Shown: positions 26,561 through 61,624, numbered from the stretch's first letter. The stretch: DNA of 64,000 bases from Massalongia carnosa (GCA_965645245.1 OZ287073.1:806001-870000); one strand, 5' to 3'. Numbers and translations: made by a program. The notes: generated by a model not told the origin, from the letters alone.

Positions 26561-27279
26561 GACGACATACTCTCTTACAGCAGGCGGGCGAATTTTCTTC
26601 CATACTTGGCAAGAGGAATATTCATTGCAAGATGTCCGCTGAGTGTAGACATAAGCCCTTGATCCTCGGAAGGGTGGTTGGGAGTAAAATCAATTGTCAC
26701 AAGTATCCCGTTACCAGTTGCTTTTGACCCTCAAAGCTAAAACAAAACGGTCGTTTGTTGTCCCCAGCGCTGGGAACGGTCTGTCGGTATTTAATCGATC
26801 AAGCTCTTGCAAGGTACAGCTTCAGGGGATGCCATGCCACGCTAGGAAGGAGGAGGCGACCAAATGGGGGCGCAAAAAGGCATAGGTAGACGGTCATAAT
26901 TCATGAAGCGACCACGCTATTATAACATCCCACTGTTTCTGGTATTTTCGACACTGTAGAAAATCAACCAATCGTTCGGGTTTTGATATAATTCCGTCCG
27001 AAGTATTTGCGCTGCACCTGCAGGAAGATAGAAACCCTTAACCCCATTAATCTACGAGAAAACCACTTGATACGAAACACGTTGTTTAGTGTAAGTAGCC
27101 TATGTTAGCGCTCATGCATGCATGACATTTTCACGTGTGAATCGAGATGCCGCATAGGGAAGAGAAAGGGGTGAGTGGGGATCAATTCCATCGAATATAC
27201 TTCGTAGATTTACCCTCATGCTCAGTAATCCGTAACCACTTGAGAGAGAACTAGGTAGCTAGCTAACGTGTAAAAGAAT

Positions 27280-27864
27280 TTTTATTTTATTTTATTAATT
27301 CATTAAGCGTATGCATCCTAAGGATATGACGCTGTGACTGCTATTTATGTACATAAACAACAGTCAGGAAGTGGAAACCTGGCCCCCAGGGTCAAACCAC
27401 TCCCTTGTTCCATGTTGAACGCAACGAGACCGTCCTTCTACCACGCGGTGCATACACCCAGATCTTCAAGCGCTAGGAATCCTATAGACTCGATGAACTA
27501 GACAGTGTATTTCCACACGCTCGACGAACGTTCTCTCTCTTTAAACGTTTTGATTCAATGGAGGAAAGACTGGCCGTGATCGAGGGCAGATCGTGGTGTC
27601 GTATAAATGAAGGTGTGTAAGTGTGGCCATTCTAAATGAATGGGCTTTTTCGATGAGGTGAAAGGCTTCCACCTGAGGGGTGTGGCCATTCCGAATGAAT
27701 GGGCTTTGTATGTGTGCCTTCGAGGTGACGAATGATCAGTAGAGACGTTGATCGTTCAAATGGCCACCGAGGTGGACTTCCGCGTTAGCGATGATCAGCT
27801 ATTGGCCACCTCCGAGGAGGTGTTGATAGCCTGCACCACGTAGAGGTTTCTGACCCAGCAGGCC
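27280..27864 (-). mobile_element. Non-autonomous non-LTR retroelement (SINE-like / internally deleted LINE), 585 bp
   Basis: 12-bp TSD GTGTAAAAGAAT at 27268-27279 and 27865-27876; 3' tail TAATAAAATAAAATAAAA; 3' stem-loops; short degenerate LINE-ORF2-like C-terminus (FIESIGFL..VCTAW*). Confidence 0.85.
27793..27864 (-). ncRNA. HDV-like self-cleaving ribozyme fold (possibly degenerate)
   Basis: GGCCUGC/GCAGGCU P1 with G1-U wobble; ACC-UCUACGU-GGU P3/L3; CACCUC-CUCG-GAGGUG P4; GCCAA J4/2; GGUCAG/CUGAUC P2. G1 abuts the TSD. Confidence 0.75.
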
Positions 27865-28379
27865 GTGTAAAAGAATATAAGATGGCCCAATCCATGGCAG
27901 CAGGGGTAATTCATGCTTTGAGAAGTAACTAAAAAGTACGGAACCTCCAATCCATGGCTTTCATCTCCAGCCGAGAAGAATCTGCATGCAAGACCAGAAT
28001 AGATTAGAGTCTTGTTTGAAACATTTGGTTGTCCATGCCAACAGCTTCCAATTGGAACCGTCCGGATGCGGTCATATCACATTTCGTCCTTTTTTGTTGT
28101 TTGGATCTTTTGGGAGACAGAGTACTTTGCCTCCTTTGTCATAGAATTTGTGTACTCTGTATTGTGTGGCGCATACTCTGTACAGAAATACATAGCTAGC
28201 TAGGTCGGTCGTACAGGGGTACAGAGTAGCCTTTGGAACCTTTATGTTTGTAGTGGTCACATGTAGTTACTCCGTAAACGAAGAACTCCGCATCCCGCAG
28301 ATCTCTCGAGAACAACCAGATAAGTTTCGCGAACAAGATTAACAAATATAAAACAATTCCAACTGTCCCTTGTGCTTTG

Positions 28380-59930: not shown

Positions 59931-61624
59931 CGGAGGAAAAAGTCCTTGGTAGCGTGCATTACTGCATTTTTAGCGTCGTGCAGAAAGGACGCTAAAAATT
60001 AAATATGGGGTTTTATAGATATTGTACATTTTGACCTGTGCAGCATCTTTCATTTATCAGATATCATCAAATAAAAATTTGTATGCTTCGAATCATGACA
60101 TCACGAACTCAGAACAATAGTCTGACTACTGGGCAAAAGTTACAAGCATTATCTTTGGTTGAACACGGCATAGCAGTCAAAGTCGTTCAAGCAGTCACCG
60201 GAGTCTCTACTCAGTCTATCAGTTATATCAAGCGCAAGGCACGAGATCGAGGATATGATCCCACTGTTTCGCGAATATTGAAGGTAAAATACGTAGAAGA
60301 TGCATGTCGTTCAGGACGTCCTCCTAAAGTGATGTCCGAGGTAGAACAGGCCATTTTAGACAACGTTTGTCATGATCGAAATGGTAGAGAAAAATCCTCA
60401 GCCGTTTTGGGATATGAGCACGGAGTCTCATCTACAACTATTCTCAATGTTCTTCGACGCAATAACTTTCGTCCCTGCAAATCTACCATGAAACCACGCC
60501 TTGATTCAACAATGAAAGAGGCTCGATTGCAATTCTGTTTGCGTTATCGTCATTGGACTCTCGATGACTGGAAGAATGTCATATGAAGCGATGAAACTAG
60601 TGTTGTGTTAGGCTCTCGAAGAGGACAAAGACTTCAGTGGCGAACTCCAAAAGAAAAATATGCTTAAACGTGCATTCGACGTAGATGGAAAGGATGTTCC
60701 GAATTCATGTTTTGGGGTTGTTTTTCGTATGAAAAGAAAGGTCCTTTTCATATATGGAAGCTGGAGACATCGGCAGAAAAACGGGCCGCTCAAGGAGAAA
60801 TCGACAAAATCAATGAGGCATTGGAGCCTCTAGCGAAAGAAAATTGGGAATTGGAAATAAGCATGAAACGAATGGGACTGCGTACCAAAGGTGGTCGAAA
60901 ACCGGTCTGGAAATGGGATGAAAAGCATGGAAAAGTGGCTCGAAAAGGCAAAGGGGCAATCGACTGGTATCGTTATCAAAAACTATTCTTCTTCCAAACT
61001 TCTTCCGTTTGCAAAAGAATGTATAAAAGATCGTCCCGATACTATTGTGCAGGAGGACAAGGCCCCTAGTCATGCTTCCAAACATCAAGACCTCGTCTTT
61101 ATGGATGCAGAAGTCTTGCGTTTATTGTGGCCGGGTAATTCTCCTGATTTGAACATGATCGAGCAATGTTGGCCTTGGATGAAAAGGCAAACCACACGAA
61201 AAGGAGCACCTCGAAATCGCATTACGGCTATCAAAGCATGGACTCGGCGCTGGACAAAAACTCTGGAAAAAAAACAAATTCAGCAATGGATAGAACAAAT
61301 TCCACGACATATAGAAGAAGTCATCGCTTTGAATGGAGGAAACGAGTATCGAGAGGGTCGAGACAATGGTGTGGTTCGGCCATATAATTCCGAAGATCGT
61401 CGCATTCGCTATCGCAAAGACATTATATCTAATAGCAGTGATGTATACTGATCATGTCATAAGTCTGCATATAGACCTGATTTTCAATGCATTATATCGT
61501 TTGAAAATGAGGTTGATGTGAAAAATAAAGTTGATAAATCAAATATGGAAAAGGGGCATTGATGCAGCGCTAAATCCTTAGTGCCATTCTTAGCGCATCC
61601 AAGGACTTTTTGTGTCATCCTCCG
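59931..61624 (+). mobile_element. Tc1-like DD34E DNA transposon (defective), TA TSD
   Basis: Termini TA|CGGAGG...AAAAGTCCTTGG (left copy with a short deletion); transposase RSGRP, SDETSV, QEDKAPSH-x-SPDLNMIE (34 residues between D and E); stops and a frameshift. Confidence 0.9.

Follow-up and report, generated by a model that had tools for sequence, protein, structure and literature searches.

A putative HDV-like ribozyme at the 5' end of an abundant non-coding fungal retroposon family

The stretch of DNA analysed here, referred to as the window throughout, comprises 64,000 nt from Massalongia carnosa and, judged by genes such as those for Nup84/107, for a P-type ATPase and for a DUF4202 protein, is fungal in content. 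The spacer that leads from the Nup84/107 gene to the ATPase gene harbors, in antisense orientation, a 585-nt element which is present once within the window and whose features are compiled in Table 1. The element is bordered by a 13-nt direct repeat (27267-27279 and 27864-27876) that takes in its first base, G1 at 27864; from the window copy alone the boundary is therefore ambiguous by one base, and the target-site duplication measures 12-13 nt. The ORF scan of 27280-27864 revealed no open reading frame above 44 aa, and a tRNA-derived SINE head was rejected since the tRNA scan of the element was empty. A Pfam search on 29 ORFs of the window for a partner LINE detected neither a reverse transcriptase nor an endonuclease. 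The window also contains, at 60035-61451 on the plus strand, the remnant of a Tc1/mariner-type DNA transposon, whose fragmentary ORFs encode HTH_Tnp_Tc3_2 and DDE_3 domains.

Table 1. Positions of the retroposon and of the predicted ribozyme elements within the window. Nucleotide n of the fold corresponds to coordinate 27865 - n.
Feature	Position	Strand	Basis or remark
Whole non-autonomous retroposon, 585 nt	27280..27864	-	Contig depth, loose ends, ORF and tRNA scans
Upstream target-site duplication copy, ATTCTTTTACAC	27865..27876	-	Direct repeat and sequence
Downstream target-site duplication copy	27268..27279	-	Direct repeat
3' tail, (TAAAA)3	27280..27294	-	Sequence; loose ends of other copies at 27278-27285
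Two 28-nt internal direct repeats, 93% alike	27621-27648, 27680-27707	-	Each a small hairpin (predicted)
HDV-like ribozyme fold, nt 1-72	27793..27864	-	Infernal, pair counts, descriptor scan
P1 5' strand, nt 1-7	27858..27864	-	Pairs with 27828-27834
P1 3' strand, nt 31-37	27828..27834	-	Sequence, pair count, MFE fold
P2 5' strand, nt 10-16	27849..27855	-	Pair count
P2 3' strand, nt 66-72	27793..27799	-	Window letter at 27799 is G66
P3 (nt 18-20 with 28-30) around the 7-nt L3 UCUACGU (nt 21-27)	27835..27847	-	
J1/4, AUCAA, nt 38-42	27823..27827	-	Infernal alignment
P4 hairpin, nt 43-58, 6 bp, loop CUCG	27807..27822	-	nt 43-48 with 53-58; MFE fold
J4/2, GCCAA, nt 59-63	27802..27806	-	Infernal alignments to RF02682 and RF00094

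The element belongs to a repeat family. Contigs of four public runs (X1, X5, X6 and X7) were placed on 27100-28040 at 80% likeness, and the stretch was found in 24 public runs, none of them recorded as RNA and several of them labelled lichen metagenome; the matching contig pieces number 1974 in X1, 126 in X6, 29 in X7 and one in X5. In X1 the summed contig depth, which is not to be equated with copy number, is about 890 on both flanks as opposed to 2e5-1.3e6 at 27292-27867. The contigs show that the element is repeated very abundantly and that its flanks are at single depth. Together with the target-site duplication, the simple-repeat tail and the lack of coding capacity, the dispersed copies with unrelated flanks give the element the marks of a retroposon. 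The two internal repeats lie 59 nt apart, and contigs of several other copies skip 57-110 nt at this place (27621-27707), indicating that the number of repeat units varies in the family.

The other copies also fix the 5' end. Among the contigs listed, 12 from X1, seven from X6 and the one from X5 diverge from the window directly behind 27864; others do so behind 27865 (five and one) or behind 27866 (four). Agreement of the flanks is at about 0.4-0.5, and the copies therefore occupy different insertion sites. The X5 copy, which resides on a 7074-nt contig of another organism, extends over 27278..27864 with 13 differences and no gaps and possesses its own, different 13-nt duplication directly abutting 27864, and in one contig from X1 27864 is connected to 27294, so that the head of one copy lies beside the tail of another. 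Thus, the first base of the family is G1, which settles the one-base ambiguity of the duplication. The preliminary description had placed the fold at the 5' end of a retroposed element flanked by target-site duplications and had let the predicted cleavage site coincide with the duplication boundary; the duplications, the tail and the borders of the other copies bear this out.

A further observation concerns the nature of the differences between the window and the other copies: 28 of the 35 listed for X1 are transitions, G>A being the most frequent (12). Judged by the pattern of substitutions, deamination or RIP-like mutation of the repeat in an ascomycete may be responsible for this excess.

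In HDV-like ribozymes, P1 starts at the cleavage site and is usually 7 bp long, often with G1-U as its first pair; P3 is short, with an L3 of 7-8 nt, and is directly followed by the 3' strand of P1, while J4/2, located after the P4 hairpin, contains the catalytic C followed by N-A-A. The minus-strand letters from 27864 to 27793 are those that had been given in the preliminary description, and they arrange the helices in HDV order, with all five HDV elements and 7+6+3+6 pairs. By script count, P1 forms seven of seven pairs between nt 1-7 and nt 31-37, including the G1-U37 wobble. It is followed by a J1/2 of UG and by P2, which in the window copy comprises six of six pairs (nt 10-15 with 67-72). 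A17 (27848) is the single unpaired base between A16 of P2 and A18 of P3. All three P3 pairs form, and in the Infernal alignment P3 and L3 are identical to the RF02682 consensus. C60 (27805) in J4/2 aligns with the catalytic C of both HDV models, RF02682 and RF00094, and the predicted cleavage site lies 5' of G1. Letters, pair counts and the full-length Infernal alignment thus agree on an HDV-like fold on the minus strand, on the wobble within a 7-bp P1 and on the candidate catalytic C, as had been read from the sequence before. In the nested MFE fold, P1 and P4 are recovered; its z-score of -1.19 is uninformative either way, as is to be expected for a pseudoknot.

An Infernal search had been suggested in the preliminary description as a check of this fold, and its outcome was twofold: both HDV models align over the full length of the fold, but no match at the ribozyme stretch reaches the Rfam gathering threshold. 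RF02682 (HDV-F-prausnitzii) aligns with model positions 1-74 of 74 to 27794-27864(-) at 29.1 bits (gathering 44), and RF00094 (HDV_ribozyme) scores 25.2 bits (gathering 50). With E-value thresholds, the RF02682 match has an E of 0.002 in the 601-nt scan and of 0.22 when the whole window is searched with all 4227 families, where it ranks first among six weak matches and no other match in 128 kb of strand is of HDV type. Descriptor scans were run in two versions, a loose one composed of the helices and C-N-A-A only and a strict one that adds the L3 letters U-C...G-N. The loose descriptor matched the window twice, which is at chance level when compared to 0.79 matches per dinucleotide shuffle; the strict descriptor matched once, at the candidate, and gave any match in just one of 150 dinucleotide shuffles. 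The second match of the loose descriptor, at 57857-57785(-), lies in G-rich sequence, relies on G-U pairing and lacks the required L3 letters; Infernal gives no match there, and the hit is consistent with the 0.79 matches expected by chance per window. Judged solely by its own sequence, the fold is good but remains below threshold.

The copies of the family provide evidence on P2 that the window copy alone does not hold. At 27799, where the minus strand of the window reads G66, X1 carries C>A on the plus strand, i.e., U66, in 298649 of 299244 of the depth (44 contigs), and U66 accounts for all of the depth in X5, X6 and X7. U66 pairs with A16 as a seventh P2 pair, so that P2 of the family majority is complete with seven of seven pairs. 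As G66 is nearly confined to the window copy, the defect in the inner part of P2, which had tentatively been ascribed to decay, is private to that copy. Failure of the family consensus to restore P2 and P1.1 had been named beforehand as evidence against the ribozyme; the majority letter does restore the A16-U66 pair, which settles half of this test in favor of the ribozyme. According to a rough energy estimate, G66 would cost P2 about 1.4 kcal/mol and would stabilise a competing hairpin (nt 34-39 with 63-68) by about 3.4 kcal/mol. Since the change from U66 to G breaks the innermost P2 pair and favors the competing hairpin, the window copy probably represents a weakened or dead ribozyme, as predicted by these models, while the source copies of the family were probably active. 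The best 40 of 73 variable places all lie outside 27800-27864 (65 of 585 nt), whereas an even spread would put about 4.4 of them there.

When the fold is computed in a longer context (27788-27839, nt 26-77), both the MFE and the centroid structure pair nt 26-31 with 72-77 in addition to nt 34-39 with 63-68. These competing helices are predicted to sequester the 3' strand of P1, and G66 would render the second of them perfect.

The second imperfection that had been noted, in P1.1, is of a different kind. Where HDV and RF02682 have G-G after P1, the window ribozyme has A-U, and Infernal places a deletion at one of the two G positions. Within P1.1 of the window only U23-A38 can pair, while C22 faces U39; for the class as a whole, P1.1 is described as 'one or two base-pairs' (PMC4908430). 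The A-U is the state of the family, as judged from the lack of any variable place in 27800-27864 among the best 40 of 73. To examine decay as the cause, metagenome contigs (JGI) were scanned with a pattern in which L3/P3, CAAC and GGCCAA are fixed and the letters of P1, P2, P4 and P1.1 are free. The scan yielded 61 loci with 51 distinct matches, and copies of the window family were not among the 61 loci. P1 forms seven of seven pairs at the right distance in 17 of the 51 distinct matches, compared to 0.46 expected from shuffled flanks, and in 12 of the 51 this is accompanied by a P2 of six of six pairs, compared to 0.012 expected. Nine of these 12 two-helix matches have AU, and the remaining three have AGG or AGU. 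As a negative control, 185,579 prokaryote genomes gave 35 matches, one of them with a complete P1 and none with both helices; these 35 look like chance matches in coding sequence.

The AU matches represent four lineages that differ in P1, P2 and P4, namely the contigs L017, L021 and L045 and a group of related contigs around L020. In the L020 group, P1 contains compensated changes, C1-G37 to U1-A37 and U3-A35 to C3-G35. Across 15 ribozymes, the window plus 14 HDV-like matches chosen from 65, A38 is invariant (15 of 15) and is the sole invariant position that was not imposed by the pattern. In the MAFFT alignment of these 15 sequences the 5' strands of P1 are out of register because the lengths of J1/2 and P2 differ, and pairs were counted per sequence instead. 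Decay of P1.1, as considered in the preliminary description, therefore finds no support: the same A-U recurs in four independent metagenomic lineages whose HDV-like ribozymes have different helices. Based on these sequence comparisons, the AU form looks like a natural, minimal form of P1.1 with one U-A pair rather than like damage.

Taken together, we consider it probable that the 72 nt at 27864..27793(-) constitute an HDV-like self-cleaving ribozyme which heads a 585-nt, non-coding, SINE/SIDE-like fungal retroposon family. For the way in which such a family would spread we infer the following course. The element has no visible promoter of its own, and its transcription would come about by read-through from DNA upstream. 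The RNA would fold into the nested double pseudoknot as it emerges, C60 in J4/2 would catalyse cleavage 5' of G1, and the RNA thus released would begin exactly at the first base of the element. Finally, the reverse transcriptase of a partner LINE would copy this RNA in a target-primed reaction that starts at the (TAAAA)n tail and gives rise to the 12-13 nt duplications. The tail, the duplications, the exact start of the family, the family as such and the fold are observed, while the partner LINE, read-through and catalysis belong to the proposal.

Three other explanations have to be weighed against self-cleavage at the head of the family. According to the first, which we regard as unlikely but as the strongest of the three, the fold is a fossil of an HDV-like ribozyme that formerly stood at the head of the family or of its LINE ancestor: a one-pair P1.1 would leave it non-cleaving throughout the family, and the uniform 5' end would stem from an internal promoter that starts at G1. 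A sharp common 5' end could indeed also arise from a fixed transcription start, and a dual arrangement of promoter and ribozyme at the 5' end has been described for Pr77 of L1Tc and NARTc (PMC4035085); the reduction of P1.1 to U23-A38 and the Infernal scores under the Rfam gathering thresholds would fit a dead fold as well. However, a fossil does not readily account for the state of the propagating copies, in which the ribozyme segment 27800-27864 is free of variable sites (among the best 40 of 73) and the majority letter maintains a 7-bp P2, which argues for selection on the fold. The AU form, moreover, occurs in four unrelated lineages whose differing P1, P2 and P4 are nevertheless paired, a pattern that is hard to explain if the form were dead, and in CPEB3 activity goes together with a one-pair P1.1 (PMC4836649).

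A second explanation accepts an active fold but assigns it a different main role, as a substitute for a 5' cap, as a binding platform for the partner reverse transcriptase or as a device that cuts host read-through transcripts. According to PMC6765202, the R2 protein attaches to the ribozyme region at the 5' end, and ribozymes are able to enhance translation; for an element without an ORF, however, a role in translation is moot, and although the present data separate none of these roles from release of the 5' end, the family starts exactly at the predicted cleavage site, as release predicts. We therefore consider a different main role very improbable. Least credible of all is a chance resemblance, i.e., that a GC-balanced 72-nt stretch happens to fit the HDV-like descriptor and is unrelated to 5' end formation, since against the loose-descriptor matches in shuffled windows, the second, G-rich match in the window and the whole-window Infernal E-value stand the rarity of strict matches among the shuffles, the letter-for-letter identity of L3/P3, of CAAC in J1/4 and of GGCCAA in J4/2 with independent ribozymes, the improvement of the fold by the majority letter of the family and the coincidence, to one base in 128,000 strand positions, of the first base of the fold with that of the family.

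A self-cleaving head on a retroposon is a known kind of system, found here in a fungal SINE-like family. HDV-like ribozymes release the RNAs of R2, L1Tc, RTE and baggins elements, in line with what the preliminary description had stated for R2, RTE and L1Tc, and some metazoan SINEs also carry such a ribozyme at the 5' end (both described in the review PMC6765202). Non-autonomous derivatives with ribozyme heads have been described as R2 SIDEs (PMC3414825) and as NARTc/SIDER (PMC4035085), and judged by analogy these two are the nearest counterparts of the window family. R2 SIDEs, the Short Internally Deleted Elements of Drosophila, are likewise short, non-autonomous and headed by an HDV-like ribozyme that sets the 5' end of the element within a co-transcript; they have a LINE-type 3' end and are copied by a partner reverse transcriptase (PMC3414825). 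In contrast to the R2 SIDEs, which the same source describes as rare, site-specific in rDNA and associated with known R2/R1 partners, the family in the window is very abundant, dispersed, flanked by 12-13 nt duplications and fungal. In trypanosomatids, Pr77 provides an HDV-like ribozyme within the first ~77 nt of L1Tc, NARTc and SIDER (PMC3185411, PMC4035085), and it is common to dispersed LINEs and to their abundant non-autonomous derivatives (PMC4035085). Ribozymes of the L1Tc type can be attenuated by downstream sequence via an alternative fold (PMC4035085), and a competing fold is predicted in the window, too. Differences are that Pr77 also serves as an internal promoter and that the host kingdom is another one, the likeness being one by description (PMC4035085).

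With respect to fungi, Li and Breaker (2017) reported 230 HDV variants from 26 species and showed cleavage for two of them; these variants reside in ascomycete genomes, in many copies per genome and with 'widely variable gene associations' (PMC5640933). The word retrotransposon is absent from the main text of that paper. Compared by the description of the class in PMC5640933, the window ribozyme shares with the fungal variants the extra nucleotide between P2 and P3, most commonly C in the class and A17 in the window. It deviates from them in two respects: the cleavage-site pair, typically C-G, is G1-U37; and P4, which contains an E-loop in the class, is a plain 6-bp helix with a 4-nt loop. In our limited literature collection we found no report of HDV-type ribozymes in retroposons of fungi or lichens, nor any activity data for the AU form of P1.1.

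The two Rfam models resemble the window ribozyme in that both align with it over the full length, that L3/P3 of RF02682 is identical and that the CAAC and GGC-N-AA motifs are common to them; they differ in that in the window one G of P1.1 is missing and the other is U, keeping the scores below gathering, and in that the context is a eukaryotic retroposon instead of a bacterial gene leader or a virus. With regard to P1.1, CPEB3 is instructive, as its P1.1 consists of one G-C pair and a U-U pair and the ribozyme works (PMC4836649). The equivalents in the window are U23-A38 and C22/U39, so that the single pair is U-A and not G-C. CPEB3 is, furthermore, located in a mammalian intron at a conserved single-copy locus, whereas the window ribozyme belongs to an abundant repeat.

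More broadly, it might tentatively be proposed, at somewhat less than even chances, that lichen-forming and perhaps other ascomycetes harbor a highly amplified SINE-like family which spreads via read-through and self-cleavage and in which a ribozyme of HDV-like type with a one-pair P1.1 is the sole conserved 'gene'. If so, it would be the first retroposon family with a ribozyme head to be described from fungi, and hundreds of fungal HDV-type ribozymes might not be gene regulators but retroposon heads. The core of AU type, which was found here in five unrelated lineages, would then define a functional subclass of HDV-like ribozymes with minimal P1.1, and the family would offer a natural example on which to gauge the least P1.1 that such a ribozyme requires. 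In trypanosomatids, in insects and in further metazoans, HDV-like ribozymes are established as cutters that free non-LTR retrotransposon RNA from host co-transcripts. Fungal ribozymes of the HDV class are known and have been shown to cleave, and in the main text of PMC5640933 they are not tied to mobile elements; an abundant, ORF-less fungal retroposon with a ribozyme head would give them a role and would add a kingdom to the list. For annotation, the case illustrates that an exact position at the 5' end of a repeat can rescue a sub-threshold Rfam match.

Some of the metagenomic ribozymes deserve mention in their own right. Complete HDV-like folds with AU at P1.1 are located at L017:263-338(-), L021:5989-6063(-) and L045:17-89(+) on unrelated contigs, and Pfam searches on the ORFs around these three gave no match at an E of 1e-4. 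At L022:941-1016(+), a fold with seven of seven pairs in P1, six of six in P2 and AGU at P1.1 is positioned about 10 nt upstream of an open frame (L022:1025-2668(+), stop to stop) with a Peptidase_M23 domain; this contig looks bacterial.

The L020 group comprises sites at L020:459-541(-), L035:422-504(+), L042:1712-1794(+), L051:1798-1879(-), L056:865-947(-), L059:151-233(-) and L060:348-430(-), all on AT-rich (24-31% GC), eukaryote-like contigs with ORFs for a hAT transposase and a Myb/SANT protein nearby. In these ribozymes the cleavage-site pair is C1-G37, P2 and P3 are separated by a C and P1.1 reads AU; P1 of the L059 copy is decayed to five of seven pairs. Each ribozyme is immediately preceded by 10-12 A encoded in the genome. 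A retroposon head placed after a poly(A) was rejected as an explanation, as the homology between the loci extends upstream of the A run; these ribozymes could cut a transcript just behind its encoded poly(A).
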